64,000 nt of DNA, from NCBI GenBank assembly GCA_017964255.1, contig JAGCSI010000034.1, positions 9,992 through 73,991 of the forward strand. The letters run 5' to 3'. The notes beneath the pieces were generated by a model. That model was not told the DNA's origin. It saw only the letters and a program-made list of their open reading frames with translations, and made no database searches. Shown in pieces: positions 3,167 to 56,498 of this stretch (within the stretch, counting starts at the first letter, position 1; the number at the start of each line of letters is the position of its first letter). The DNA comes from Bacteroidales bacterium (GTDB lineage Bacteria; Bacteroidota; Bacteroidia; Bacteroidales; WCHB1-69). The position numbers and the translations under genes are program-made.

Positions 3167-4891
3167 CTACAGTTTCATCTCCTCAATTATCCCCTTGATC
3201 TTCGCCTGCATTGCGGCATTGGCCTCGTCGTATTTGGCTACATCAGGCAACTCGCCCACCACACCGAAATAGAACTTGATTTTGGGTTCGGTGCCGGAGG
3301 GACGGACGGTGATTTTGGAGCCGTCGGCCGTGAAGAACTGCAGCACATTGGACTTGGGCAGGGCAATGGGTTCTTGCGTGCCTTTGTCCAAGTGATAAGC
3401 GATGCTAGCCTGGATGTCGTTCATCAGCACCACCTTCTGTCCACCGATTTCTTTCGGAGGATTGTTGCGGTAGTTGACCATCATGGCGGCGATTTCCTCG
3501 GCACCGCTCTTGCCCTGTTTGGTCAGCGAAAGCAGGTCTTCTTTGTAGAAACCGTATTCGTGGTAGATTTCGAGCAGCATCTGGTACAAACTCTTGCCCT
3601 GGTTAGCGTAGAAGGCGGTCATTTCGGCGATAAGACAGCAGGCAATGACGGCATCTTTGTCTCTTACAAAGTCGCCGGCCAGGTAGCCGTAGCTTTCCTC
3701 ACCACCACCGATGAAGCTCATCTGGCCCTCATGCTCTTTGATTTTTTCCGCAATATATTTGAAGCCGGTCAACACATCGAAGCAAGGCACCTGATAGGCA
3801 TCGGCCATGCGCTTGATTAATTCGGTGGTGACGATGGTCTTGACGACAAACTGTTTGCCGTTGATTTTGTTGAGGGCTTTCCACTGCGACAGCAGATAGT
3901 GAACCAGCAGGGAGCCAGTCATGTTGCCGTTGAGCAGGATCATCTCACCTTTGGAGTTGCGCACAGCGATACCCACGCGGTCGGCATCGGGATCGGTGGC
4001 CAGCACCAGGTCAGCTTTCTCGGCCTCTGCCTGGGTGATAGCCATCACGAGGGCGCTTTTTTCCTCGGGGTTAGGTGACTTCACGGTGGGGAAGTTGCCG
4101 TCGCTGACAGCTTGCTCTTTGACGATGCTGATGTTTTCAAATCCGTACATCTTCAAGGCCTTGGGCACCATGGTGATGCCGGTGCCGTGCAGCGGAGTGT
4201 AGATGATTTTCAGCTGTTTCTGAGCGGCAATGGCCTCTGGATGCAGCGATAGGCCGTGAACCAGCTTTAGGTAAGCCTCATCCAGGCTGCTATCGATGAT
4301 ATGCACTTTGTCGGGGTTGCGCTGCCATTTGGTATCATGCAGCGACTTGATTTTGTTGACCTCGGCAATGACATTTTTGTCGTGTGGGGGCACCAATTGT
4401 CCACCGTCATTCCAATATACTTTGTAGCCGTTATATTCTTTCGGATTGTGCGAGGCGGTCACCATTACACCCGACTGGCAGTGCAGGTAGCGCACAGCGA
4501 AAGACAGCACCGGGGTGGGGCGCAGCTCTGGGAACAGGTGGCAGGTGATGCCGTTGGCGGAGAGCACGTCGGCGGTGATGTCGGCGAAATAAGCGCTGTT
4601 GTTGCGTGAATCGAAGGCGATGGCTACGCTGATTTCCTGCTTGGGGAACTGCTGTTTCAGGTAGTTGGCCAGTCCTTGGGTGGCGGCGCCCACCGTGTAT
4701 TTGTTCATGCGGTTGGTGCCCACGCCCATGATGCCGCGCAGACCGCCCGTGCCGAATTCCAGGTCACGGTAGAAAGCCTCGGTCAGCTCGTCGGGGTTGT
4801 TTTGCTGGTATTCCCTGATTTTCGCTTTGGTATCGGCATCGTAGTCGTCGTTCAGCCACAGCGCCACGCGTTCTTCAATATATTTATCCAT
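3167..4891 (-). CDS. phosphoglucomutase/phosphomannomutase family protein (alpha-D-phosphohexomutase)
   Basis: 574 aa. Phosphoserine loop TASHNPKEYNGYK; length and order of four-domain phosphohexomutases. Confidence 0.9.
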   Translation of the reverse strand: MDKYIEERVALWLNDDYDADTKAKIREYQQNNPDELTEAFYRDLEFGTGGLRGIMGVGTNRMNKYTVGAATQGLANYLKQQFPKQEISVAIAFDSRNNSAYFADITADVLSANGITCHLFPELRPTPVLSFAVRYLHCQSGVMVTASHNPKEYNGYKVYWNDGGQLVPPHDKNVIAEVNKIKSLHDTKWQRNPDKVHIIDSSLDEAYLKLVHGLSLHPEAIAAQKQLKIIYTPLHGTGITMVPKALKMYGFENISIVKEQAVSDGNFPTVKSPNPEEKSALVMAITQAEAEKADLVLATDPDADRVGIAVRNSKGEMILLNGNMTGSLLVHYLLSQWKALNKINGKQFVVKTIVTTELIKRMADAYQVPCFDVLTGFKYIAEKIKEHEGQMSFIGGGEESYGYLAGDFVRDKDAVIACCLIAEMTAFYANQGKSLYQMLLEIYHEYGFYKEDLLSLTKQGKSGAEEIAAMMVNYRNNPPKEIGGQKVVLMNDIQASIAYHLDKGTQEPIALPKSNVLQFFTADGSKITVRPSGTEPKIKFYFGVVGELPDVAKYDEANAAMQAKIKGIIEEMKL

Positions 4892-4928: not shown

Positions 4929-5006
4929 CAAAAAGTTTTCGGATTGTCAAAAAATATTTTTGCCATATAATTCCCCTTCTTTAAGACTCGACGAACGAGC
5001 GATGTG

Positions 5007-5034
5007 GTAGAGACGTTTCATGAAACTTCTCTAC
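5007..5034. repeat. 28-bp palindrome family B, copy 1
   Basis: gtagagacgtttcatgaaacttctctac, one mismatch from a perfect palindrome. Preceded by the flank module ttaagactcgacgaacgagcg. Confidence 0.85.
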
Positions 5035-5125: not shown

Positions 5126-5563
5126 ATGGAAGAGAAAGATTTACAACTCTTGGAAGAGTCAAAATTGTATGTGTCAAGCATGGGCAAATGGATGAAATTC
5201 TTTGCCGTGTTGATGACCATAGCTCTTGTGTTCATGGCATTAGGCTGCATAGGCATCGTGTCATTCGGTTCGCATATTCCAATGGAAGTATTTGGAGGGC
5301 TAAGTTTGAAATGGTTCGGATTTTTATACTTGATTATGATTATCCTGTATGTTTTCCCAACCCTTTATCTGTACCGTTCGTCAGCAGCTGCACAATTGGC
5401 AGTGGAAGCTAACGATAATGAGCAGGTTGTGGAATTCCTCAAGAATAACAAGTCTTTCTGGAAATTCTGCGGGATTTTGACGATTGTGATGTTATGTACC
5501 TATGTTGTGGCGATTATTGGTATTATTATTGCCGCGATAGCCATGGGAATGCCGATGATGTAA
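5126..5563 (+). CDS. small integral membrane protein (three hydrophobic segments), function unknown
   Basis: 145 aa from MEEKDLQLLE. Three long hydrophobic stretches; no catalytic motif. Confidence 0.6.
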   Translation: MEEKDLQLLEESKLYVSSMGKWMKFFAVLMTIALVFMALGCIGIVSFGSHIPMEVFGGLSLKWFGFLYLIMIILYVFPTLYLYRSSAAAQLAVEANDNEQVVEFLKNNKSFWKFCGILTIVMLCTYVVAIIGIIIAAIAMGMPMM

Positions 5564-5616
5564 TCAAAAGCCCTGTTTAATTTCCCTTTATTAGATTCGA
5601 CGAACGAACGAGTATG

Positions 5617-5644
5617 GTAGAGACGTTTCATGAAACGTCTCTAC
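5617..5644. repeat. 28-bp palindrome family B, copy 2 (perfect)
   Basis: gtagagacgtttcatgaaacgtctctac, preceded by the flank ttagattcgacgaacgaacgag. Confidence 0.9.
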
Positions 5645-5664: not shown

Positions 5665-5754
5665 GAATTCAAAGTTCAGAATTCAAAATTCAATTGGTAC
5701 ATTAGCACATTAAAACAATTTGCTAATTTACTAATTAACTAATTTGCTAATTAA
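5665..5754. repeat. heptamer (GAATTCA-like) plus octamer (AATTTGCT-like) tandem tracts abutting the ftsW stop
   Basis: gaattca aagttca gaattca aaattca, then aatttgct aatttact aattaact aatttgct aattaatc. The tract ends at the stop codon at 5755-5757. Confidence 0.8.
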
Positions 5755-6828
5755 TCACGCTTCTTGTTTGCTGATGTTCAGCAACACACCGGTAGCGATG
5801 CCGGCAAAGAGTAGGGAGGCACCGCCACGACTGATGAAGGGCAGTGTCTGTCCGGTGGCGGGCAGGAGCCCGCAGTTGACACCAATGTGTACCAAGCCCT
5901 GACAACAGAACCAGAAACCTATACCTACCGCCAAGAGCATGCCGAAGGGTCCTTCGCTGCGCTTGGCGATTTTTATGGAGCGGATAAACAGCATCAGGTA
6001 GCAGGCCAGAATGATCAGGCTGGCGGTGATGCCCAATTCCTCCGTCACTGTGGTGAACACGTAGTCAGTGTCTTTTTCAGGCAGATTCTTGTTGATGACT
6101 CCCTGTCCAGGTCCTGCTGGCAGCAGTCCCGAACGGGCAATGGCAGCCTTCGACATAATCATTTGGTCGCCATAACCTTCGCTGTTGTCGTTGGTGATGT
6201 AATAGTGACAGCGGTGGCGGAAGGTGCTGGAACGTCCGGAGTTGGTTCCGAACAGGTAAATGGAGCCGAAGAAAACCGCCACAAAGCAGAAGAGCATAAG
6301 ATGCTTGATTCTGACATTGCCTAAAAACATAATGGCCAGGCTGGTGGCGAAAAAGATGATAGCGGTGGACATGTTGCTGAGAGCCATGCCACCGGTGAAC
6401 AGCAAGACGACAACAAATAGTCCTGACACGTCCTGTAAGGTCATTCTGGAATCATTGTTGATGCGGACGGCCAGGAATTTGGCGATGAAAAAAATGACCA
6501 GGAAACCGATGAAATAGAAAGTCTGGATTTCCATGGATCCGATTTGGATGCCTCGCCGTTCTTCATTACCGAACGCCAGGGTTGCCACCAGTAGAATGCC
6601 AGCTGCAAACAGGGAGAAGAGCGCCAGCCTCGACAATGCCTGGTAGTTGATTTTGTAGGCAACAAACATACCGACAAAGCATAGGGCGAGGTTGAACAAA
6701 TGGTGAATGAAGACAGAGGTCGATTTGGCAGAGCTTAACACTGCCAACACCGAAATCAAGGACAGGACAATGGTGATGATCAGGATGCCCCTGTCTCCTT
6801 TGAATTTGAATTTCTCCCTTAGATCCAT
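5755..6828 (-). CDS. ftsW: FtsW/RodA/SpoVE (SEDS) family cell-division protein
   Basis: 357-aa polytopic membrane protein. SEDS-like blocks KDTDYVFTTVTEELG and TGQTLPFISRGGAS; sits in the ftsW position of the dcw cluster. Confidence 0.8.
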   Translation of the reverse strand: MDLREKFKFKGDRGILIITIVLSLISVLAVLSSAKSTSVFIHHLFNLALCFVGMFVAYKINYQALSRLALFSLFAAGILLVATLAFGNEERRGIQIGSMEIQTFYFIGFLVIFFIAKFLAVRINNDSRMTLQDVSGLFVVVLLFTGGMALSNMSTAIIFFATSLAIMFLGNVRIKHLMLFCFVAVFFGSIYLFGTNSGRSSTFRHRCHYYITNDNSEGYGDQMIMSKAAIARSGLLPAGPGQGVINKNLPEKDTDYVFTTVTEELGITASLIILACYLMLFIRSIKIAKRSEGPFGMLLAVGIGFWFCCQGLVHIGVNCGLLPATGQTLPFISRGGASLLFAGIATGVLLNISKQEA

Positions 6829-6992: not shown

Positions 6993-7550
6993 TTATAACT
7001 GTGCTACCGCGTCTTTGAACTTGTCACCTCTTTCGCGGTAAGTGTGATACATGCCGAAACTGGTGGTTCCGGGAGCGAAAAGGATGGCGTCGCCGGCATC
7101 GGAAGCATAATAGGCGGTGCGAACAGCATCTTCCAGATTGTCACAAATATCCACCATTTTGTCCAAACCGGAAATGAAATCGTATACTTCTGTGTTGTAA
7201 ACATCTACCATGATGATATGTTTCACCTTTTCGTTGATAATGTCCACGAGACTGTCGCTGATATTCTCGCGTTTGTCAATGCTCATGATCCAAGTGGTAG
7301 GCTTGGTCATGCTTTCCAGGGCAAACCATACAGCGTTGGCGTTGGTGGAGCGTGAGTCGTTGATAAAATCTCTGCCTTCGATGGTCTTGACCAGCTCGAG
7401 GTTGTTGGCGCTGCCCTCGAAGTCGGACATGGATTCGTTCAAGCTTTCGTTACGTGCGTGGAGCAGTCTGCCCGCTACGGCAGCGGCCATGCTGCTGCGG
7501 TTGTCGGTGGTGGGGAATACGTTGTACCCAATGTTTTTGTTTGTTGCCAT
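6993..7550 (-). CDS. murD: MurD C-terminal-domain-only ORF (truncated UDP-N-acetylmuramoylalanine--D-glutamate ligase; likely gene remnant)
   Basis: 185 aa, versus roughly 440 aa for MurD (from memory). Only the C-terminal region is recognisable (DFINDSRSTNANAVWFALESM; LFAPGTTSFGMYHTYRERGDKFKDAV). The ATG lies 3 nt after the mraY stop, so there is no room for the N-terminal and P-loop domains. Confidence 0.6.
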   Translation of the reverse strand: MATNKNIGYNVFPTTDNRSSMAAAVAGRLLHARNESLNESMSDFEGSANNLELVKTIEGRDFINDSRSTNANAVWFALESMTKPTTWIMSIDKRENISDSLVDIINEKVKHIIMVDVYNTEVYDFISGLDKMVDICDNLEDAVRTAYYASDAGDAILFAPGTTSFGMYHTYRERGDKFKDAVAQL

Positions 7551-7553
7551 ATT

Positions 7554-8813
7554 TTATCTTACTTTTAATGTTACTACTGAAATTACTGCCAACAGGATGC
7601 CGATGATGATGAATCGCTGTACGATTTTGGTTTCATGCAGGCCCTTTTTCTGGTAATGGTGGTGAATGGGTGCCATCAGAAAGACGCGCTTGCCTTCACC
7701 ATATTTTTTCTTGGTATATTTGAAATAACTTGTCTGGATGATGACGGAAACTGATTCGATGAGATAGATGCCGCAAAGGACAGGAATCAGCAATTCTTTA
7801 CGGATGATGATGCACAAAACAGCGATGATGCCGCCTAGGGAAAGACTGCCAGTGTCGCCCATGAACACCTGGGCTGGGAAGCAGTTCCACCAGTAGAAGC
7901 CGAGACATGCCCCGAGCAAGGCGGCGATGAAGACTACCAACTCACCGATGTTGGGGATGTACATGATGTTCAGGTAGTCGGCGAAAATGCTGTTACCTGA
8001 CACATAGGCTAGTACGGCGATTCCTATGGAAATCACAGCTGCGGTGCCGATGGCCAGACCATCCAGTCCGTCGGTGAGGTTGGCCCCGTTAGATACCGCC
8101 GCTATGATGAAGATGATGACTAAAATGTAAACCAGTGAGGAAAGCAAGCCTGACTTGTCTCCCGTCCAGTTGGTGAGCCAGGCATAGTCGAATTCGTTGT
8201 TTTTCACAAAGGGAATGGTGGTCTTGGTGGAGTTGTGTTGGGCAGGAATTCTGCTGAAGACACTGGTAGTCTGGTTGGCCTCGCCAATGCTGACAACTTC
8301 TGTGGTTTCAACTTTCTTGCTTATAGTACTGTTTTTCTCTTTGATGATTACATCGGGATGAAAGCACATCACAATACCTACAATCAGGCCTAATACAATT
8401 TGTCCGATGAGTTTTTTCTTTCCGGAAAGGCCTTCTTTGTTTTTCTTGAAAACTTTGATATAATCATCGGCAAATCCTAGGCATCCTAACCATAAAGTAG
8501 TGAATATCATTAAGATAATGTAGATATTGTTCAGTTTGGTAACCAAAAGTACTGGTACGATAATGGAAGCGATGATGATAAGACCACCCATGGTAGGGGT
8601 GCCTTTTTTCTGGAGCTGTCCTTCCAGACCAAGGTCGCGGACAGTTTCTCCAATTTGAGCCTTTTGCAGTTTCTTGATGACACTTCTTCCAATTATGAGC
8701 GAGATGAAAAGTGAAAGCACGATGGCTGCTGCTGCTCTGAAAGAAATGTATTGGAACATTCCCGCGCCAGGGAAGTTGTATTGGTGTAACCAGTCGAAAA
8801 GGTAGTACAGCAT
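7554..8813 (-). CDS. mraY: phospho-N-acetylmuramoyl-pentapeptide transferase
   Basis: 419 aa. Motifs [21 protein letters not shown] and APIHHHY; multi-pass membrane protein in dcw order. Confidence 0.95.
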
Positions 8814-8832: not shown

Positions 8833-10308
8833 TTAGAGATTAAAGTTTGCTTTTATTTCTTCGGTGTCATCAAAGTGATGTTTCACGTGGTTGATTTCCT
8901 GATAGTTCTCGTGGCCTTTACCGGCAACCAGCAGCACATCCTTGCCTTGCATCAGCATGCAGGCGGTCTTGATGGCCTCGTGGCGGTTCTCGATGACCAG
9001 CACCTTGCGTTTTTGGTCGGCGCCCACTCCTTGAAGCATGTCGTTGAGGATGTCCTCGGGTTTCTCGGTACGGGGATTGTCGGAGGTCAGGATGACCTTG
9101 TCGCTGTATTCGCAGGCGATGGCGGCCATCTCTGGGCGTTTCAGCTTGTCGCGGTCACCACCGCATCCTACCACGGTGATGATGTTCACGCTGTGCTGCG
9201 TGATGTCGGTGATGGTGGAGAGCACGTTCTTCAGTGCGTCGGGGGTATGGGCGTAATCAACAATGGCAGAACCTCCTTCAGTATTGCGGATCAGCTGGAA
9301 ACGGCCGGCAGCGCTACCCAAGCCACTCATTTGCTGTAATACCTCGGCGGAATCCATACCCAGCAGGATGGCGGCACCGTAAATGGCCAGCAGGTTGTAG
9401 GCATTGAAGCGGCCACATAATTTGAAATACACTTCCTGTCCATTGATGGTCATCTGCAGACCAGTGAAGTCATTGTCCAAAATAACTCCTTTGAAATCAG
9501 CAGTTTTCAGCAAACTGTAAGTCTTGACTTTGGCCCTGCTGTTTTGTGTCATCACCAGGCCGTTCTTGTCATCAATGTTGGTCAGAGCGAAAGCGTTTTC
9601 AGGCAGTTCGTCGAAGAATTTCTTCTTGGCTTTGATGTATTCGGCAAAGGTTTTATGATAGTCCAAATGGTCGTGGGTAATGTTGCTGAAAATGCCTCCG
9701 GCGAAATGTAATCCCGCGATGCGGTGCTGGCAGATGGCGTGTGAGCTGACTTCCATGAAGCAGTACTGGCAGCCAGCTTCCACCATGCGGTGAAGCAGTT
9801 CGTTCAGCACGATGGCGTCGGGGGTGGTGTGTGTAGTGGGGATGACTTCGTTTACAATGCGGTTTTCAATGGTGGAAAGCAGTCCGGTGGGGTAACCCAT
9901 GCTGTTGAACAAGCGGTACAGCAGGGTGACGGTAGTGGTTTTGCCATTGGTGCCGGTGATGCCCACCAAATGCAGTTTCTGGCTGGGGAAATCATAAAAA
10001 GCACTGGCCAACAATCCAAGGGCGATGTCACTGTTAGGCACCTTGATGAAGGTGACATCCTGAGGTAGAGACGTTTCCTGAAACGTCTCTGCAGGAATCT
10101 CTTCGCAAACAATCATTCTGCCGCCCTGTTCAATGACTTTGCCGATGAAACTGTGGCCATCCACATGGGTGCCACGCTGGGCGACAAACAAGGTGTTAGC
10201 ATCGTTTGCTTTGCGCGAGTCAAAGGTGATGTTCTCCACCTGACGCTCGGCAGATCCTATGAGTTCATATTTTCCAATGTGTTGCAATAAAAAAGATAAG
10301 GTTTTCAT
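8833..10308 (-). CDS. murE: UDP-N-acetylmuramoyl-L-alanyl-D-glutamate--2,6-diaminopimelate ligase
   Basis: 491 aa. P-loop GITGTNGKTTT and a DNPR motif (TSDNPRTEKPEDI) typical of DAP-adding MurE. Confidence 0.95.
   Translation of the reverse strand: MKTLSFLLQHIGKYELIGSAERQVENITFDSRKANDANTLFVAQRGTHVDGHSFIGKVIEQGGRMIVCEEIPAETFQETSLPQDVTFIKVPNSDIALGLLASAFYDFPSQKLHLVGITGTNGKTTTVTLLYRLFNSMGYPTGLLSTIENRIVNEVIPTTHTTPDAIVLNELLHRMVEAGCQYCFMEVSSHAICQHRIAGLHFAGGIFSNITHDHLDYHKTFAEYIKAKKKFFDELPENAFALTNIDDKNGLVMTQNSRAKVKTYSLLKTADFKGVILDNDFTGLQMTINGQEVYFKLCGRFNAYNLLAIYGAAILLGMDSAEVLQQMSGLGSAAGRFQLIRNTEGGSAIVDYAHTPDALKNVLSTITDITQHSVNIITVVGCGGDRDKLKRPEMAAIACEYSDKVILTSDNPRTEKPEDILNDMLQGVGADQKRKVLVIENRHEAIKTACMLMQGKDVLLVAGKGHENYQEINHVKHHFDDTEEIKANFNL
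10065..10092. repeat. 28-bp palindrome family B, copy inside murE coding sequence
   Basis: gtagagacgtttcctgaaacgtctctgc differs from the intergenic consensus at 2 positions. It is translated in-frame as AETFQETSL in the MurE N-terminal domain. Confidence 0.85.
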
Positions 10309-10326
10309 TGCTATTGTTTGTTTAGT

Positions 10327-12582
10327 TTATTCCAGATAAAGTGTTACAGTGTTGGTGGCCGTGTTCAAATCCTGACGGTGTACCACGCCATAGCCTTTTA
10401 TTTTCACTTGATAGCCGGCGCGTGTCAGTTCGCTGACAGCATCAGCCGCAATCATATCTGTCACATCAGGCATCTTGTCGCCGTTTTTGAAACGAGGTTT
10501 TTTCAGCATCACGGAGTAGTCTTCGCGCAAGCCGGAGGTGACGTAGGGCACCGGCAGTTGACTGTCAGGATAAGCGATGCCCAGTTGTTTCATGAGGAAC
10601 TTGTATTGTTCAGTGTTGACCACGTAGGTTCTGGGTGTTTTGGTGTTTTGATTATGATTGACAGTTTGCAATGCGCCATAGCCATTGTTGCCGGTGTTCA
10701 TAATATTTCTGGCAATACGAGCGAAGACATCTACAGCAATGGAACTTTTTTTGGACACATTGTACATGAAAACCAGACAGGTGTATTTTGGGGTGTCGGC
10801 GGGGAAATATCCGCAAAAAGAAACGCTGTTCTTGCTGTAGTTGTATGCTTTGAGTTCCTCGTCCCAGATGTCACGGGTACCGGTTTTACCAGCAAAAGTT
10901 ATTATTGTGTCTCGGTAAGGGCGGGCAGTGCCATGTTCGCCGTAGACCACTGCTTTCAGGTAGCTTTTTGCCTTGGCAATAGTTTGTGGACTGCATATTT
11001 TCTCGTTGAGGACTTCTGCTTGGAAGGTTTCTAGGGGTTCAGTCTCGTGAGCTTTGGTGATGTATTTGACGAAGAGTGGTGCAAGCATTTTGCCGTTGTT
11101 GGCGATGGCATTGTAATACACCAAAGTCTGGATGGGGGTCATGGTGAATCCAGCCCCATAGCAGGTGTTGTAATAGGTATGAAAATCTTTGGCATTACGC
11201 TTGAGATTGGGAGCCTGAATCTTACCTAATTGTGTGGAGAAAGAGGTGGTGATGTATAGTTGGTCGATTTTTTTCAAGTAATTTTTATAGTTATTATCGC
11301 CGAAGGCATCAAAGATCATGGAAGCAATACCGACATTGGAGGAACGCTGGATAATTTCACTGGGATAAGCGTAAATATTTTTGTGGTTATTGTCGTCATA
11401 GGAACTTTTGTCATATTTGTGGTACACGTATGTCCTGCTATTGTCTTTGTTTGTTCTTTTGAAATCATGACACAAAATGTGATAGGCCTTGTTATCATCA
11501 CCATGTCTCTGTTCCAGGTAGGCGAGGGCAGAGGCAATCTTGAAAGTGGAACCTGGCTCCACCATCTTGTGCAGCACGTATTCATCGCTTTCAGTATAGT
11601 CACTTCCGTCACGGTTGGCCCGGCGCAGGTTGCAAATGGCTTTGATTTCTCCGGTCTCGGTTTCCATCACCACTGCGCAACCCCATTCTGCATTTTGTTC
11701 TATTAGTTTGGCTTTTAATTCATTGTGGACGATATTCTGAATTTCCAGATTCAAGGTGGTATGGATATCGTAACCGTCAACAGGCTCCACATATTCATTC
11801 AGGGGAAGACGGGCTTTGTTGACATACAGATATTTGCGGGAGCCTTCAATGCCGGCAAGCTGTTCGTTGAAGTAGTACTCCATGCCATACTGGCGGTCGC
11901 CGATGTTCAGGCCTAAAGTTCGTTTGGCAAGGTCTCCATAGGGGTTGATGCGCACGGTATGGTAGGTGTAGTTGACACAGCGTTTGCAGGGTTTCTCGGA
12001 GAACATGGGCAGATGATTGATAAAAGCAGTGTCCTCGGAGGTGACCCATCGCTGCTCATTGCTTTCGTTAGACTGTAGGATGAGCGCATTGCTTTGCTCT
12101 ATCAAGGCACGGGTGAATTTTTTACGATAGTATTGCAGGTCGTTTTTGGGGAATTTGTCTTTGAAATGATTATAGAATTCCGCACTCAGTGTCTCAACCA
12201 ATTTGTTCAGCTTGGCGGCGGAATGAACATATATGGTGTCTTTGGAGCCGAAAATACGGCCATCCAGCGTGAGGTCGAAAACGGTGACATTGCTGACCAG
12301 CACGTGATTCTGATCGTCATAGATCTCTCCTCTGACAGGGCGCACGTTGTTGGCTATCACATAGCAGTCGCAGGTCGAGTCCTGGGCGAGGGGGTTCTGC
12401 TTCCAGTCTTCCTGGGTTTTGTCGAGGCATTTGGAGGAGGTGCCACTATAAAGTGAGCGTTGGAAAATGACAAGATACAGGATTTTGCCGAAACAGCAAA
12501 CACCCAGCAACAACACCAGAAACAGGATGACTCCCATTCTCGTGTTGAAACGTTTGTTTCCCATGTTTTCGTTATTCTGCAT
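10327..12582 (-). CDS. ftsI: penicillin-binding protein (FtsI-type class B transpeptidase)
   Basis: 751 aa with an N-terminal membrane anchor. Transpeptidase motifs STFK (EPGSTFK), SSN (RSSNVG) and KTG (AGKTGT). Confidence 0.9.
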   Translation of the reverse strand: MQNNENMGNKRFNTRMGVILFLVLLLGVCCFGKILYLVIFQRSLYSGTSSKCLDKTQEDWKQNPLAQDSTCDCYVIANNVRPVRGEIYDDQNHVLVSNVTVFDLTLDGRIFGSKDTIYVHSAAKLNKLVETLSAEFYNHFKDKFPKNDLQYYRKKFTRALIEQSNALILQSNESNEQRWVTSEDTAFINHLPMFSEKPCKRCVNYTYHTVRINPYGDLAKRTLGLNIGDRQYGMEYYFNEQLAGIEGSRKYLYVNKARLPLNEYVEPVDGYDIHTTLNLEIQNIVHNELKAKLIEQNAEWGCAVVMETETGEIKAICNLRRANRDGSDYTESDEYVLHKMVEPGSTFKIASALAYLEQRHGDDNKAYHILCHDFKRTNKDNSRTYVYHKYDKSSYDDNNHKNIYAYPSEIIQRSSNVGIASMIFDAFGDNNYKNYLKKIDQLYITTSFSTQLGKIQAPNLKRNAKDFHTYYNTCYGAGFTMTPIQTLVYYNAIANNGKMLAPLFVKYITKAHETEPLETFQAEVLNEKICSPQTIAKAKSYLKAVVYGEHGTARPYRDTIITFAGKTGTRDIWDEELKAYNYSKNSVSFCGYFPADTPKYTCLVFMYNVSKKSSIAVDVFARIARNIMNTGNNGYGALQTVNHNQNTKTPRTYVVNTEQYKFLMKQLGIAYPDSQLPVPYVTSGLREDYSVMLKKPRFKNGDKMPDVTDMIAADAVSELTRAGYQVKIKGYGVVHRQDLNTATNTVTLYLE

Positions 12583-16174: not shown

Positions 16175-16306
16175 TAATTAGCTAATTAGCAAATTAGTTA
16201 ATTAGCAAATTAGCAAATGATTTTTGGGAGTCTCATGCTAAGCATTCGAGGGAGAGTTGTAAATGTGCTAATTGAATTTTGAATTCTATTCAATGTGCCA
16301 ATTGAA
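16175..16306. repeat. mosaic of octamer (AATTAGCA) tract, 30-bp C element and heptamer tract
   Basis: taattagc taattagc aaattagt taattagc aaattagc (16175-16219). C element gggagtctcatgctaagcattcgagggagag (16226-16256). Heptamers aaatgtg ctaattg aattttg aattcta ttcaatg tgccaat run up to the stop at 16308. Confidence 0.8.
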
Positions 16307-18922: not shown

Positions 18923-19552
18923 ATGGATTACCAAATCAAGAATGTAAAATTCCTTAAGTCCGAGGTAGATTATAAAAAATGCCCAGCGGACCGTTTACCT
19001 GAAGTTGCCTTCATTGGCCGTTCCAATGTGGGTAAATCTTCATTAATCAACATGTTAGCAAATCATAAGGATTTGGCAAAGACCTCATCAAAACCTGGAA
19101 AAACCCAAACCATCAACCATTATGAGGTGGATAAGCGATGGTACCTTGTGGATCTGCCAGGCTATGGTTATGCTTCCATTTCCAAGTCAATGCGCGAGAA
19201 ATGGGAGAAGATGATAGACAATTATCTCAGATACCGTAAAAACCTCCAGTCGGTGTTCGTATTGGTGGATATCCGTCTGGAACCGCAGGAATTGGATATC
19301 AATTTTATCAATAAATTGGGAGAGATGGGCATGCCGTTCTCCTTGGTATTTACCAAGGCGGATAAAATTGGGAAAAACAAGGGCGCTGTCAGTGTGCGTA
19401 ATTTCTGCCGTAAGCTGATGGAAACCTGGGAAGATTTGCCACCGTTCTTTGTCTGTTCATCTGTAGATGGTCGTGGCAAACAGGAACTGTTGGACTATAT
19501 TGACCAGATTAACGAATATTATTACAACCAGAAAAAACAGGAGAAAGAATGA
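18923..19552 (+). CDS. engB: ribosome biogenesis GTP-binding protein YihA/YsxC (EngB)
   Basis: 209 aa. G1 GRSNVGKSSLIN and G3 DLPGYG. Confidence 0.9.
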   Translation: MDYQIKNVKFLKSEVDYKKCPADRLPEVAFIGRSNVGKSSLINMLANHKDLAKTSSKPGKTQTINHYEVDKRWYLVDLPGYGYASISKSMREKWEKMIDNYLRYRKNLQSVFVLVDIRLEPQELDINFINKLGEMGMPFSLVFTKADKIGKNKGAVSVRNFCRKLMETWEDLPPFFVCSSVDGRGKQELLDYIDQINEYYYNQKKQEKE

Positions 19553-30256: not shown

Positions 30257-30313
30257 ATTCTGAACTTTGAATTTTGAATTCTCTAAACTCTAATCCCTGT
30301 CCCCTGTAACCTG
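30257..30313. repeat. eight drifting heptamer units ending 1 nt from the stop of the first T9SS paralog
   Basis: attctga actttga attttga attctct aaactct aatccct gtcccct gtaacct, followed by the stop (tca at 30314-30316). Confidence 0.85.
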
Positions 30314-39986: not shown

Positions 39987-40059
<73 letters not shown>

Positions 40060-41027: not shown

Positions 41028-41153
41028 TTTAAATTCCCCTTCTTCTAGATTCGACGAATGAGCGAGTGCAGATTCATAGTTTACTTTGAGTATGCCGAGC
41101 GAAGAGGAGAAGAAGACGAAGTCTTCAACGGGTGGCCGAAGGCCGGGGTAGTC

Positions 41154-41181
41154 TAATTTTGAATTTTGAATTTTGAATTAA
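41154..41181. repeat. (GAATTTT)n heptamer tract next to the stop of the FemAB-like gene
   Basis: taatttt gaatttt gaatttt gaattaa, 6 nt before the stop at 41188-41190. Confidence 0.8.
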
Positions 41182-44343: not shown

Positions 44344-44380
44344 AAAAAAAAGTGGAGATGCAATGGCGTCTCCACTTTTT
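44344..44380. terminator. bidirectional-type intrinsic terminator after the acyl-CoA ligase gene
   Basis: 10-bp stem gtggagatgc/gcgtctccac (one G-U pair) with loop aatg, flanked by A8 and T5. The arm reuses the gcgtctccac word found in family-A elements. Confidence 0.7.
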
Positions 44381-52696: not shown

Positions 52697-53195
52697 CGAA
52701 AACAAACCGAAACGCTCACCTTGGCTGGTGGTGCTGGCAGTATTAACCTTCATTTTCTCGGGTTTTTCCTTCCTGGGATATTTTACGCTTTCTTTTACTT
52801 CCGGGGTGATGCCATCGGTGATAGAGATGTATGAGAACGCGGGAATGCCGAGCGAGATGATTGAGGCTATGCAAAAATTGGCGGAAGTGCCGTCGTGGCA
52901 GTATCTCTTGCTGTCTTTAGGTTATGCCTTGGCAGTGGTGGGTGCCGCTTTGATGCTGAAACTTAATAAAGTCGGTTTTCATTTGTATGTCATCGCCCAA
53001 ATCTGGCTGTTTGTAATGTGCAATCTGGTCATTAAAGGCGCTTTGACCATGAATTGGATGAGTATTTTCACCACCGTGCTGATTATTGCCTGTTATGGTT
53101 TGCTGATGCGTGAGGCTTTGATGAACAAAAATGACGGGAACCAGTTCTCGGATTATGAGGAAGTGAATGATCAAGACGATGATGACGATGAATAG
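52683..53195 (+). CDS. small membrane protein with acidic C-terminal tail
   Basis: 170 aa. Four hydrophobic segments; tail ends DQDDDDDE. It overlaps tilS by 14 nt and sufS by 8 nt, which suggests translational coupling. Confidence 0.55.
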   Translation: MDPFNENKPKRSPWLVVLAVLTFIFSGFSFLGYFTLSFTSGVMPSVIEMYENAGMPSEMIEAMQKLAEVPSWQYLLLSLGYALAVVGAALMLKLNKVGFHLYVIAQIWLFVMCNLVIKGALTMNWMSIFTTVLIIACYGLLMREALMNKNDGNQFSDYEEVNDQDDDDDE

Positions 53196-54390
53196 AGAGG
53201 ATTTTAAGATTTTGGATCAGAAGATATATGGCAGACCATTGGTATATCTTGATAATGCTGCCACCACGCAGAAACCGCAGGTGGTGATTGACACATTGAA
53301 GGCGTATTATGAGACCATCAATAGCAATATCCACCGTGGGGTGCATTATCTGAGCCAGCGGGCTACCGACGAGTTTGAGGCTGCCCGTGAGGCGGTACGA
53401 CGCTTTATCAACGCCCGTCATGCCTATGAGATTATTTTCACCCGTGGAGCTACGGATTCTATGAATCTGGTAGCGGCTTCTTTTGGACGTACTTTTTTGC
53501 ATGAAGGCGATGAAATCATTGTCAGCGAGATGGAGCATCATGCCAATATTGTACCGTGGCAGTTTCTTTGCAAAGACCGTGGTTGTGTGCTGAAAGTGCT
53601 TCCTTTCAACGAAAAGGGAGAGTTGTGCATAGAGCAGCTGGATCAACTGATTACTCCCAAAACCAAGATAGTGGCGGTGACGCATGTGTCCAATTCTTTG
53701 GGAACGGTCAATCCGGTGAAGGAAATTATTGAAATAGCCCATGAAAAGGGTGTTCCTGTGCTGCTGGACGGTGCTCAGGCAGTCTCCCACTGCAAAGTGG
53801 ATGTCCAGGCCTTGGATTGCGAGTTTTACTGCTTCTCGGGGCACAAGATGTATGCGCCGATGGGTATCGGGGTGATGTATGGCAAGGAGGAATGGTTGAA
53901 CAAGATGAAACCCTACCAGGGTGGGGGTGAGATGATCAAGCAGGTGACTTTTGCCAAAACCACTTATAACGATTTGCCTTTTAAATTCGAGGCCGGTACT
54001 CCCAGTGTGGGCGATGCCATGGGCTTGAAGGCTGCAGTGGAATATATGGAGAGTATTGGTATTGAGAATATTGCCGCCTATGAGAAGGAGTTGCTTGATT
54101 ATGCGGAGGAGCGTTTGTCAAGTATTGAAGGACTTCGTATCTATGGTCAGGCAGCACAGAAAGCGGCTATCGTTTCTTTCAATATAGATAAAATCCACCC
54201 CTCTGATATCGGGGCTATTATTGACAAATTGGGTGTGGCGGTGCGTACAGGCCATCATTGCACCCAGCCTATCATGGATCATTTCGGAATTCCCGGAACG
54301 GTCCGGGCTTCGTTTGCCTTATACAATGACAAAAAAGAAATAGACGACCTCTATGAGGCCGTCTATAGGGCAAAAAACATGTTGTTGTAA
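53188..54390 (+). CDS. sufS: cysteine desulfurase, SufS family (start ambiguous: 53167-53188)
   Basis: LVYLDNAATTQKP, PLP-lysine block SGHKMYAPMGIG, and catalytic Cys loop RTGHHCTQP. Confidence 0.9.
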   Translation: MNREDFKILDQKIYGRPLVYLDNAATTQKPQVVIDTLKAYYETINSNIHRGVHYLSQRATDEFEAAREAVRRFINARHAYEIIFTRGATDSMNLVAASFGRTFLHEGDEIIVSEMEHHANIVPWQFLCKDRGCVLKVLPFNEKGELCIEQLDQLITPKTKIVAVTHVSNSLGTVNPVKEIIEIAHEKGVPVLLDGAQAVSHCKVDVQALDCEFYCFSGHKMYAPMGIGVMYGKEEWLNKMKPYQGGGEMIKQVTFAKTTYNDLPFKFEAGTPSVGDAMGLKAAVEYMESIGIENIAAYEKELLDYAEERLSSIEGLRIYGQAAQKAAIVSFNIDKIHPSDIGAIIDKLGVAVRTGHHCTQPIMDHFGIPGTVRASFALYNDKKEIDDLYEAVYRAKNMLL

Positions 54391-54394
54391 AAAA

Positions 54395-54426
54395 ATATAG
54401 AGATGCAAAACATTGCATCTCTATAT
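54395..54426 (-). terminator. 14-bp perfect hairpin; T-run only on the minus strand (terminator for the protease gene)
   Basis: atatagagatgcaa aaca ttgcatctctatat, preceded on the plus strand by A5, which reads as a T-run after the hairpin for minus-strand transcripts. Confidence 0.6.
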
Positions 54427-54466
54427 TAGGGGATAATATTCTTGAATTTTGAATTCTGAATTATAT

Positions 54467-54500
54467 GTAGAGACGTTTCATGAAACGTCTCTACTTTTTT
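54467..54500 (+). terminator. family-B 28-bp perfect palindrome followed by T6 (terminator-like for sufS)
   Basis: gtagagacgtttcatgaaacgtctctac followed by tttttt. This is copy 4 of the palindrome family. Confidence 0.55.
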
Positions 54501-54503
54501 ATA

Positions 54504-56498
54504 TTAATTCTTCGAGAATTTCTTATACACTACTTCGTTATCCACGGTAGTCAGACGCATGAGGTACATGGCGTTTTCTAACTGGGCCACGGGGATAATC
54601 AGCGAGTTGTCACCGTTGGTGTTGGCGCTGTAAACCACTTTGCCTAACATGTCGATGATTTCGACTTTGCTGAGGAAGTGATCAGCGGTTTCAATATTGA
54701 TTTCGTTGTGAGCGGGATTAGGATAAATGTTGAATTCTGTTTCTGAAACCATGGAGATGCCTGTTCCGGAAGCATCTTGTTTCACAATTACTTGGAAAGA
54801 AGTGCCATCGGCTTTGTTGACAAACATATTGCAACGGCGGGTGCTGGTTGTGGGGTTTGCCTGGCAAGTCACCTGTATGGCACCGTCACCACTACCGGAT
54901 TCGTTATTCACAGTAAACCAGCTGTGATCATTTTGATAGGTCAGAGTCCATGGCTGGTCGCTGAAAACAGTGTAGTTATAATTAGCGCCATTGGCACTGA
55001 AAACGTGAGCGGCGGGCAAGACATAGAATGAACTAGTGAGGTCCAAGGTATTGCAAGTTGTTTGTGAAAGCGGAACGGGATCCAACCAAGGTTGCAGTTT
55101 TCTTTCGTTGGTAGTTCCGGCGGAAGACCAGTGGTAAGACATTTTGCCGTAGTATTCTCTGCTATTGGGGTTGGCGCAGTTAGAGTTGCCACCGGTAAGG
55201 GTGCCGACTACCAATCCATTAGAGTTGAACAGGGGTGAACCTGAGGAACCTCCTTCTGTGTCACTTCTGCCATGAGCAGTGGTAGCCCATGGAACTACCC
55301 AATACGCATTGGTTGCTCCATCGTTGAAAGTGCCGGAAGTCAAGGTGGAATTATAGGTGGAAATTTTCTTCACATCACCTGCGGGGTGGTGGATACAAAC
55401 ACCTGAGGAACTGGCCGAAACGGCTTTGCTCCATCCGTTCAGCACTAAACCGTCATTTTTCAATCTGGTCCAGGCGGCGTTTTTCAATTTCAGCAACAAA
55501 AAGTCAGATCCACGATAGGTGTAAGCGCCAGAAGTGTTAGTAATGGCGATGGGGCTGCTGGCGACTTTGGTAACGCCTGAGTACGTGATCATGCCCGGCT
55601 CAGAAGTGCAAGTGCAATAAGGACATTCGTAATGGAAGTAAATTTCAAAATAATTGAAATATTGGATGGTAGTTCCTTCTGCACAGTGGTGGGCGGAAAG
55701 AAAATAGGGGGTTCCATCACCCATGGTGTTGTTGATTAATGTGCCAGAACACCAGCCTGCGGTTACTTCTCCGTCTTCTGTACCATAACAAAGCATACGT
55801 CCTACGCCTTTTTGCTGAACTCTCCAGTTGTCACCTTCAGAGCAGTTGACATTAATCTTGCAACTTTGGGCTGCTCCATAACCGGTATCACCGTCTTTGG
55901 TTCCGAAAATTCTGTTGTCGGGCAATCCTTCTGAACGATAAAAATAGGTATATCCGGCAATCAGAATGTCGGGATTCTCACTTTGGTTAAACATTTGTTT
56001 TGGAGAAACGTATTCCAGAATCACATCTCCTCCCGCGAACAATCCGCTACTGAAACCTTCTCCAGAAGGATTGTCTTCGTTGGTATAAGGACCATAAATC
56101 AAAGACTTGTCGTCGTTGTAAGCAAAGAACTGTGAGCCTTCGGGCAATTGGAAACGTTCGAAGAGTGCGCAACATCCCAATGCTTTGGCATTGTGTAATC
56201 TCAGTCGCCAGATGTCATAACCGTCATTTGTATGTTCCCAAATTCCCGCATTGTCAGTGGTAAGTTGCAAAGGCATGACAATAGCCACCTTCAAGGGAGT
56301 GCCATCCATGATGGATTTTTCCGATTTGGCTTGAAGATCCGCTAAATCGGGAGTGGCAACATCAACCTGAGGAACAGAGGCTTCAGATAATTGTGCCACA
56401 GTACTTTTGGGAAGAACACCGCTGTTCACTTGTGCGGATACCCATTGACCGATAATCAGACATAAGGCCAATAAAGAGACAGGTAGTAATTTTTTCAT
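54504..56498 (-). CDS. secreted trypsin-fold (S1-like, lysyl/glutamyl endopeptidase-like) serine protease with T9SS type-A C-terminal domain
   Basis: 664 aa with a signal peptide. His block LSAHHC and Ser block TEGGSSGSPLF. C-terminal ~80 aa (IYPNPAHNEINIE...MYLMRLTT...) look like a Por secretion tail. Confidence 0.75.
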   Translation of the reverse strand: MKKLLPVSLLALCLIIGQWVSAQVNSGVLPKSTVAQLSEASVPQVDVATPDLADLQAKSEKSIMDGTPLKVAIVMPLQLTTDNAGIWEHTNDGYDIWRLRLHNAKALGCCALFERFQLPEGSQFFAYNDDKSLIYGPYTNEDNPSGEGFSSGLFAGGDVILEYVSPKQMFNQSENPDILIAGYTYFYRSEGLPDNRIFGTKDGDTGYGAAQSCKINVNCSEGDNWRVQQKGVGRMLCYGTEDGEVTAGWCSGTLINNTMGDGTPYFLSAHHCAEGTTIQYFNYFEIYFHYECPYCTCTSEPGMITYSGVTKVASSPIAITNTSGAYTYRGSDFLLLKLKNAAWTRLKNDGLVLNGWSKAVSASSSGVCIHHPAGDVKKISTYNSTLTSGTFNDGATNAYWVVPWATTAHGRSDTEGGSSGSPLFNSNGLVVGTLTGGNSNCANPNSREYYGKMSYHWSSAGTTNERKLQPWLDPVPLSQTTCNTLDLTSSFYVLPAAHVFSANGANYNYTVFSDQPWTLTYQNDHSWFTVNNESGSGDGAIQVTCQANPTTSTRRCNMFVNKADGTSFQVIVKQDASGTGISMVSETEFNIYPNPAHNEINIETADHFLSKVEIIDMLGKVVYSANTNGDNSLIIPVAQLENAMYLMRLTTVDNEVVYKKFSKN

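Follow-up and report, generated by a model that had tools for sequence, protein, structure and literature searches.

A double-foot REP palindrome within the reading frame of murE in rumen Bacteroidales

How does a short palindrome that otherwise lies between genes come to be read as protein inside an essential enzyme, and what becomes of it there? The question is raised by a 64,000-nucleotide stretch of a Bacteroidales genome (contig JAGCSI010000034.1 of assembly GCA_017964255.1; hereafter the window), in which the 28-mer GTAGAGACGTTTCATGAAACGTCTCTAC stands in intergenic DNA and once, slightly altered, within the open reading frame (ORF) of murE. The 28-mer is a 'double-foot' repetitive extragenic palindrome (REP), with GTAG at its 5′-end and CTAC at its 3′-end, of the kind tied to the tyrosine transposases associated with REPs (RAYTs, or TnpA_REP) of subclass 2.4, also called group 4. 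Most probably the murE copy goes back to an old in-frame insertion of such an element, which has been carried between lineages by recombination, has had its core replaced and is now a passenger of the gene.

Four matches to the 28-mer are found when the whole window is searched with up to three mismatches (Table 1), and none is expected from 100 dinucleotide-preserving shuffles of the window. The copies at 5617 and 54467 have no mismatch, the copy at 5007 has one (G21T), and that at 10065, in murE, has two. A relaxed scan, in which the 18 outer bases are fixed around an N10 core and up to three mismatches are allowed, returns the same four sites and no extra one. Three of the four copies are intergenic, two of these between convergent genes, and all three have the ends GTAG...CTAC. 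The initial annotation, made from the letters of the window, had placed intergenic copies at these same three positions, and two of the three are indeed perfect palindromes. The perfect copies are predicted to fold at -17 to -21 kcal/mol with z of -5 to -6.6 and with 12-16 predicted pairs over 28 nt, the lowest values (-21 kcal/mol, z = -6.6) being those of the copy at 5617. The unit common to all four copies is the 28-bp palindrome alone, and the flanks carry no target duplication. At the gathering thresholds of Rfam the palindromes match no RNA family, and the sole match in the whole window is a tRNA (39987-40059, minus strand).

The gene that holds the fourth copy is identified as murE by the Pfam Mur_ligase N, M and C domains of its product and by an E-value of 3e-81 to E. 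coli MurE structures, and the protein is identical to MBP5663118.1 from a Bacteroidales metagenome-assembled genome (MAG). On the coding strand the copy is read as GCA GAG ACG TTT CAG GAA ACG TCT CTA, and its peptide is followed by PQD and then by VTFIKV. The initial annotation had described a copy differing from the repeat at 2 of 28 positions and translated as AETFQETSL just before VTFIKV, with the central catg and one end of the stem abolished by the two changes, and the minus-strand ORF agrees with it on every point. Compared with the consensus, the two substitutions remove the central CATG and alter one terminal GTAG/CTAC, so that the feet read GCAG...CTAC in the coding direction and GTAG...CTGC on the opposite strand. 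An RNA hairpin is still predicted for this copy (-17.9 kcal/mol, z = -3.0). In an AlphaFold model of the window MurE (m5aa512e8489c; mean predicted local distance difference test score, pLDDT, 86), residues 69-85 are a 17-residue coil in domain 1 that joins strand 65-68 to strand 86-89; block 71-80 has a pLDDT of 62. The position of the peptide in this coil of reduced confidence fits a tolerated loop insertion, as had been proposed. E. coli MurE aligns at the peptide site without a gap, and the length of the loop is therefore naturally variable.

The site was followed through relatives in an alignment of 120 MurE homologues together with members of the query's own 90% cluster, and was read in the DNA of nine relatives (L numbers denote fetched loci or contigs and P numbers MurE proteins of the homologue set; L131 murE, at 10001-11464, is P0253). 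Only the query and the relatives closest to it (about 88-95% amino acid identity), which form a small clade of rumen Bacteroidales, have five to seven extra residues at the site; the core-deleted P0253 has one. All homologues at or below 85% identity are without extra residues, as are P0244, P0245 and P0247, three alleles of 485 aa with 93% identity to the query. In every relative that has them, the extra residues are encoded by the same palindrome family, with the feet GTAGAGACG and CGTCTCTAC, or by a decayed remnant of it. Five intact cores are found at the site among the relatives, namely TTTCATGAAA, TACGGCCGTA, CAAAATTTTG, TGCCATGGCG and CAAAGCTTTG. The remnant in L131, GTAGAGACGTCTCTAC, is a 16-nt perfect palindrome in which the two feet are joined (VET-SL) by a symmetric 12-nt deletion; this deletion could equally well be a RAYT excision footprint or the result of slippage between ACGT...ACGT direct repeats, and no choice is made between them. 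The proposal that a palindrome was inserted into murE is supported by this restriction of the extra residues to the query and a small clade, and an identical peptide from identical nucleotides was not seen, among the homologues compared, in genomes without the repeat family. That the insertion was tolerated as a loop stands as well; what is to be refined is that the class of element has already been described and that the loop is of naturally variable length.

The class of the element emerges from the wider family. A scan of one genome per species (596 Gb) with the pattern GTAGAGACG-N10-CGTCTCTAC finds at least 120 loci, against about nine expected by chance, and the hosts among the matches listed include Bacteroidota, Cyanobacteria (including Nostocaceae), Chloroflexi, Acidobacteria, Ignavibacteria, Planctomycetes and others. 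In metagenomes, a search for exact copies of the window 28-mer likewise gives at least 120 loci. The 10-nt cores are highly variable, with 70 unique ones among the genome loci listed, and are almost always self-complementary; 35 of these 70 make perfect palindromes. Palindromy spans even the central 4 nt, where Watson-Crick pairs are formed in 83% (pair 13-16) and 71% (pair 14-15) of the matches listed. Such palindromy of nucleotides that are unpairable in a hairpin hints at the copying of one arm from the other. On the 5′-side of the GTAG foot, T occupies position -1 in 53-68% of the copies listed, position -2 is a pyrimidine, and TT and CT are the commonest dinucleotides. This preference is compatible with CT, the cleavage site of the RAYTs tested so far (PMC8266576). 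Full-text literature searches with the arm sequences, the whole palindromes and the encoded peptides returned primer-type noise or nothing.

Clustering of the ORFs near the palindromes yields a recurrent family in six or seven of the at least 120 genome loci, with a palindrome inside the ORF or directly beside it. These ORFs have the motif MPNH[LFI]H, then WQ (as EWQ, FWQ or AWQ) and then YIxNNPxxW in L017, L018 (YIFNNP), L040, L059, L076 and L083; the Y motif deviates in L222 (YIEQNP) and, in its last positions, in L140 (YIEENV) and L159 (YIENNV). The description of subclass 2.4 gives its motifs as NH[IFV]H, WQ and YIxNNP, its REPs as 'double foot' elements (5′ GT[AG]G and 3′ C[TC]AC) that also occur in frame inside tnpA_REP, and its hosts as Cyanobacteria and Bacteroidetes with a scatter of other phyla (Quentin et al., 2018; PMC6006769). 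RAYT group 4 has the same broad distribution (Bertels et al., 2017; PMC5581495). Judged by their motifs, the palindrome-associated ORFs are TnpA_REP subclass 2.4, or RAYT group 4, enzymes, and their sole NCBIfam match is REP_Tyr_transpos (E = 1e-14 to 1e-15). Palindrome copies lie inside the RAYT-like ORFs of L017, L059, L083, L140 (two), L151 (two) and L159, in agreement with the earlier account (PMC6006769). In metagenomes, REPtrons with the exact window 28-mer are found in L140, L159 and L151; their order in L140 is REP, 70 nt, RAYT, 8 nt, REP, the other two being similar, and REPtrons are also present among the genome loci (L018 and others). The RAYT of L140 has two in-frame internal REPs, one with the core GGGCGCGCCC and one encoding VETFHETSL, and such differing cores around one enzyme gene suggest that the core is not the determinant of RAYT specificity.

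Other classes of element were considered and rejected. Three of them, namely a site like dif of 28 bp, paired Esp3I/BsmBI sites (GAGACG/CGTCTC) and a dimeric DNA-binding site spaced by 10 bp, are opposed by a spacer or core that is both self-complementary and freely varying, and by the tie of the element to a RAYT gene. A Rickettsia-type palindromic element (RPE) or a miniature inverted-repeat transposable element would be about 100-150 bp long or longer, with terminal inverted repeats enclosing a non-palindromic body and often a target-site duplication; it is ruled out by a shared unit that is only the 28-bp palindrome, and by flanks without duplication.

Several points nevertheless weigh against the account given here. 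First, the RAYT-like ORFs score under the curated cut-offs (52-58 versus 80 bits in NCBIfam, and 21 versus 23 bits for Pfam Y1_Tnp, the latter with E = 3e-4), and PDB 4ER8 is matched at E = 0.44 only. Second, tblastn and hidden Markov model searches find no RAYT gene in the window and none in the syntenic loci L001-L005, and the putative link of the REPs of this genome to a resident RAYT is drawn from related contigs. Third, binding and cleavage of REPs have been demonstrated for group 2 and group 3 enzymes only and for no subclass 2.4 enzyme (PMC8266576). Fourth, a length of 28 nt is not divisible by 3, inserted alleles exceed uninserted ones by a net +18 or +21 nt, and no clean boundary between an empty and a filled site is definable in murE because the loop has diverged.

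The history of the site is recorded in the DNA around it. Outside about ±90 nt of the REP, the identity of the rest of the gene to the query is 89.4% in L132, 88.9% in L129 and 86.4% in L133, and in L132 the flank is 79.6% identical to that of the query. The REP state is not congruent with the gene tree, uninserted L132 being nested among inserted alleles. All inserted alleles have the derived downstream flank (P/Q)xD[VI]TF, and the uninserted ones, L132 included, have xxQVSY downstream, as in the outgroup. L001 and L002 are 97.6% identical over murE, and 33 of their 38 differences fall within a tract of about 130 nt (alignment columns 164-296) centred on the REP; the differences in the tract are mostly synonymous, and the genes are 99.6% identical otherwise. 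This tract is a short-patch homologous recombination between diverged rumen lineages, by which a different REP variant was imported. The simplest history is that of one old insertion, the allele then being shuffled among lineages by homologous recombination.

A single insertion followed by recombination is insufficient to explain the diversity of the cores, because the cores differ far more than the flanks. From one inserted allele to another the flanks diverge by 15-20% and the cores by 60-100% (6-10 of 10 positions), and each core is still self-complementary. Cores are shared by 28% of pairs within a genome versus 2% between genomes among the genome loci listed. In the window, the core TTTCATGAAA is present at all three intergenic sites and, with one change, in murE; L133 has the same core in murE and at 19028; and in L001 both murE and the intergenic orthologue of the window 5007 site carry TGCCATGGCG with one and the same T:G imperfection. 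At that orthologous site L002 has TGCCATGGCG as well, and L131 has TTTCATAAAA. A second orthologous pair with different cores is found after sufS, where the window hairpin at 54397 corresponds to a hairpin at 11229 of L128 with the core GGGCGTGCCC. The copy at 54467 has an orthologue in L127, and at the site of the 5617 copy no REP is visible in L001 and L002, where the alignment is poor. We infer that REP copies elsewhere in the same genome were the source from which the cores were overwritten in place. Compensatory change accumulating gradually in one ancestral core was rejected as the main process, given the disparity between core and flank divergence, and it is also opposed by the occurrence of the same imperfect core at two loci of one genome.

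The following course of events may be proposed. The hairpin would form in single-stranded DNA, as is known for the tested RAYTs, and by analogy with them an HUH/Tyr enzyme would bind it, take the GTAG foot as a guide and cut at the adjacent YT dinucleotide. Cutting next to the foot would allow copies to be made or exchanged. One copy landed in the reading frame of MurE, within a coil at the surface of domain 1, where the essential enzyme tolerates it, at a time before the roughly 20% DNA divergence of the small rumen Bacteroidales clade. The segment bearing the REP has since moved between lineages by homologous recombination, of which L001 and L002 provide the direct case, and the 10-nt core between constant 9-nt feet would several times have given way to another, most likely one copied from a REP of the same genome. 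The copy in the query matches the dominant core of its genome (TTTCATGAAA) and has acquired two point changes, one of them destroying the GTAG foot on the coding strand. With a GCAG foot, cleavage by the S. maltophilia RAYT is nearly abolished (PMC8266576). The murE copy is probably immobilised in part, a passenger that has no role of its own in the gene.

A more specific mechanism can be put forward tentatively: the 9-nt feet may be fixed docking sites and the core a cassette, overwritten in place by a group-4 RAYT or by hairpin template switching. We regard this as a possibility that is rather doubtful at present. If true, one codon position of an essential enzyme would become a hypervariable peptide whose frame is never broken, and ETFHETSL, ETYGRTSL, ETQNFASL, ETCHGASL and other peptides would be swapped cassettes. 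The palindromy of the central 4 nt would then be a footprint of arm copying and not of selection for a stem.

Different REP variants might instead have entered the same murE codon independently, if this codon is a favoured target and MurE offers few other places for an insert. Such repeated entry would agree with a REP state that departs from the gene tree and leaves L132 uninserted among inserted alleles, but the derived flank common to the inserted alleles, as opposed to xxQVSY, points to one ancestral inserted allele and subsequent recombination, and L001 and L002 show such a tract around the REP directly. Repeated entry would also agree with the completeness of each variant as a near-perfect member of the family, and with the two or three copies in several genes among the loci listed, which show a high insertion rate. 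Although the family has a flank preference (T at -1 and a pyrimidine at -2), at least five hits on the same nucleotide would need a very strict target, and family flanks are otherwise diverse. Independent entry is therefore unlikely, and a single old insertion with recombination and replacement of the core is preferred.

It is far less probable still that the palindrome has been kept for a function, whether as an mRNA hairpin acting on the translation or processing of the division and cell wall (dcw) transcript or as a peptide that aids MurE. The insert does persist across about 20% DNA divergence, and the hairpin is strong in the query (z = -3, as given above) and in L001 (-22.4 kcal/mol). 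However, it is gone in L002 and L003/L004 (z about 0) and reduced to 16 nt in L131, and this decay in L002 and L003 speaks for a hairpin whose structure is not conserved. Nor is the peptide conserved, its sequence differing almost completely from allele to allele (ETFQETSL, ETYGRTSL, ETQNFASL, ETCHGASL and ET--SL); the close alleles P0244, P0245 and P0247 are without the insert, and the loop is modelled at low confidence. A chance match, or an artefact of assembly or binning of the MAG, is refuted by the absence of expected matches in shuffles, by the identical protein on seven contigs in NCBI, ENA and Logan assemblies and by related inserted alleles in many independent assemblies.

The murE copy is not alone in being translated. 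Deep inside long ORFs lie 17 of the 128 copies in the genome loci listed and 27 of the 129 copies in the metagenome loci listed (about a fifth of the latter), and several genes hold two or three copies. Intragenic REPs in many unrelated genes have already been catalogued (Di Nocera et al., 2013; PMC3733652). One of the three reading frames of the palindrome contains TAG, and with the core TTTCATGAAA a second contains TGA. Only the VETFHETSL frame (VET....SL) survives in genes because the other frames hold stops, and the same frame is used in murE. Four metagenomic loci (L136, L200, L251 and L252) encode secreted proteins of one family, about 490 aa long, each with one to three REP-encoded peptides at recurring positions. 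Some of these positions are filled by a REP in one member and by an unrelated peptide of the same length in another, for example GRIV-ETFHETSL-QPG versus GRIV-GANHYSSL-QPG. In two other metagenomic loci, L192 and L246, the identical 28-mer is in frame in ORFs unlike Bacteroidales genes, by eye putative MenD-like and galactokinase-like proteins, which suggests that the same REP variant is present across distant hosts.

Palindromes of this behaviour recall several known systems. The RPEs that Ogata and colleagues described in 2000, to which PMC3733652 also refers, are reportedly selfish palindromic DNA, found in frame in essential genes and tolerated at surface regions. RPE-1 is 100-150 bp long, adds 30-50 residues and belongs to another lineage without a known subclass 2.4 RAYT, whereas the present element has 28 bp and adds nine residues. 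The small dispersed repeats (SDRs) of heterocystous cyanobacteria, treated by Elhai and colleagues in 2008, are said to be mobile hairpin repeats of 21-27 nt in Nostocaceae, often beside heptamer repeats. They are likened here to the present family by description only; both occur in Nostocaceae, and the heptamer-like runs of the window (see below) recall the companions of SDRs.

From the REPs of subclass 2.4 (Quentin et al., 2018, PMC6006769), or group 4 (Bertels et al., 2017, PMC5581495), nothing essential differs here. Three features seen here are unstated in the available part of PMC6006769: the 9-nt feet stay constant across phyla while the self-complementary core varies freely, the central 4 nt are palindromic too, and at one orthologous site the core has turned over. 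The GTAG/CGTC-tagged REPs of Di Nocera et al. (2013; PMC3733652) are likewise short, lie wholly in ORFs, add 7-30 residues in frame and are interpreted there as tolerated insertions, and different REPs have been noted at about the same recB site in two Xanthomonas species. Unlike the present case, those examples are mostly from Proteobacteria, Opitutus and Rickettsia, and no one site was traced through many close relatives; the available portion of the supplementary text of PMC3733652 contains no Bacteroidales species, no murE case and no GTAGAGAC-type family. Turnover of REP classes has been described around orthologous RAYT genes ('orthogroups'; Nunvar et al., 2013; PMC3686654), related strains having different classes at orthologous positions. 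This turnover resembles the present case in replacement in place, as in murE and at two intergenic sites here, and differs in that the REPs flank the RAYT gene of pseudomonads and stenotrophomonads and do not lie inside an unrelated essential gene.

Further palindromic and repeated sequences accompany the REPs of the window. The intergenic copy at 54467 is followed by T6 and has the look of a terminator. The hairpins at 54397 and 44352 (Table 1) resemble members of the palindrome family whose feet have been altered symmetrically, and the latter may be a shorter relative of the family with the form GT[AG]G...C[TC]AC. A 27-nt near-palindrome, ATAGACGACCTCTATGAGGCCGTCTAT, lies at 54340-54366 in the coding 3′-end of the sufS-like gene (..IDDLYEAVY..) and is scored as terminator-like on the minus strand; it may be a fortuitous match or what is left of a very old REP. 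Three copies of a module of about 33 nt, AATTCCCCTTCTTnTAGAyTCGACGAAyGAGCGA, lie at 4970-5002, 5580-5611 and 41032-41065, a few bases 5′ of a REP in two of the three cases and alone in the third; the REP copies in murE and at 54467 lack it. Within the module is a small hairpin of 4 bp in which a change in one arm is compensated in the other (CTCG..CGAG versus TTCG..CGAA), and in L131 and L133 a different small GC hairpin, CACTACCCCGCCCTTTGGGC, follows the REP instead of the module. Heptamer-like runs (TTCAAAA/TTCAGAA) are intergenic at 5668-5693, 16272-16290, 30260-30285, 41152-41177 and 54442-54460, and two of them adjoin REP copies.

The neighbourhood of murE has a peculiarity of its own. 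The interval between mraY and ftsW is usually occupied by a full-length murD of about 440 aa. Between mraY (7554-8813) and ftsW of the window lies an ORF of 185 aa (6993-7550, minus strand) with only a weak Mur_ligase_C match, and the ORF at this position is of the same size in all the loci of relatives fetched. The dcw cluster stops after ftsW, with no murG, murC or ftsQAZ beyond.

Table 1. Palindromic features of the window with their host gene, and the state of the murE site in the query and its relatives
Feature	Position	Strand	Sequence or context
murE (UDP-MurNAc-tripeptide synthetase), 491 aa	8833..10308	-	host gene of the palindrome
REP copy in murE	10065..10092	-	coding strand GCAGAGACG-TTTCAGGAAA-CGTCTCTAC = AETFQETSL, aa 73-81
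REP copy, 1 mismatch	5007..5034		divergent region, phosphoglucomutase-family gene (3167-4891, -) / DUF5362
REP copy, perfect	5617..5644		between convergent DUF5362 (5127-5563, +) and ftsW (5755-6828, -)
REP copy, perfect	54467..54494		between convergent sufS-like gene (53167-54390, +) and gene 54504-56498 (-)
Variant REP-like palindrome	54397..54424		ATAGAGATG-CAAAACATTG-CATCTCTAT; 7 nt past sufS stop codon; terminator-like
GTGG-footed hairpin	44352..44375		GTGGAGATGCAATGGCGTCTCCAC; flanked by A5/T5; terminator-like
murE site, query			GCAGAGACG-TTTCAGGAAA-CGTCTCTAC; 2 changes from consensus
murE site, L133			GTAGAGACG-TTTCATGAAA-TGTCTCTAC
murE site, L129			GTAGAGACA-TACGGCCGTA-CGTCTCTAC
murE site, L130			GTAGAGACG-CAAAATTTTG-CGTCTCTAC; perfect palindrome
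murE site, L001			GTAGAGACG-TGCCATGGCG-CGTCTCTAC
murE site, L002			GCAGAGACG-CAAAGCTTTG-CATCGCTAC
murE site, L131			GTAGAGAC and GTCTCTAC joined across a 12-nt central deletion
murE site, L003/L004			decayed remnant
murE site, L132 and L005			nothing, uninserted

General knowledge of MurE and of REPs is unchanged by the murE case, which is a real and fairly ordinary example of selfish DNA tolerated in an essential gene, the class of element being already known. Less ordinary are the at least five different self-complementary cores, the core deletion and the decayed copies at one murE codon of close relatives. This series of alleles is present in public rumen metagenomes, from the uninserted state through five intact variants to the core deletion and decayed copies; it could be used to gauge the rates at which double-foot REPs are gained, overwritten and lost, and to test whether subclass 2.4 RAYTs exchange cores between fixed feet. 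For annotation, in-frame VETxxxxSL or RDxxxxVST in proteins of Bacteroidota and cyanobacteria is to be taken as REP-encoded and not as protein-family sequence.

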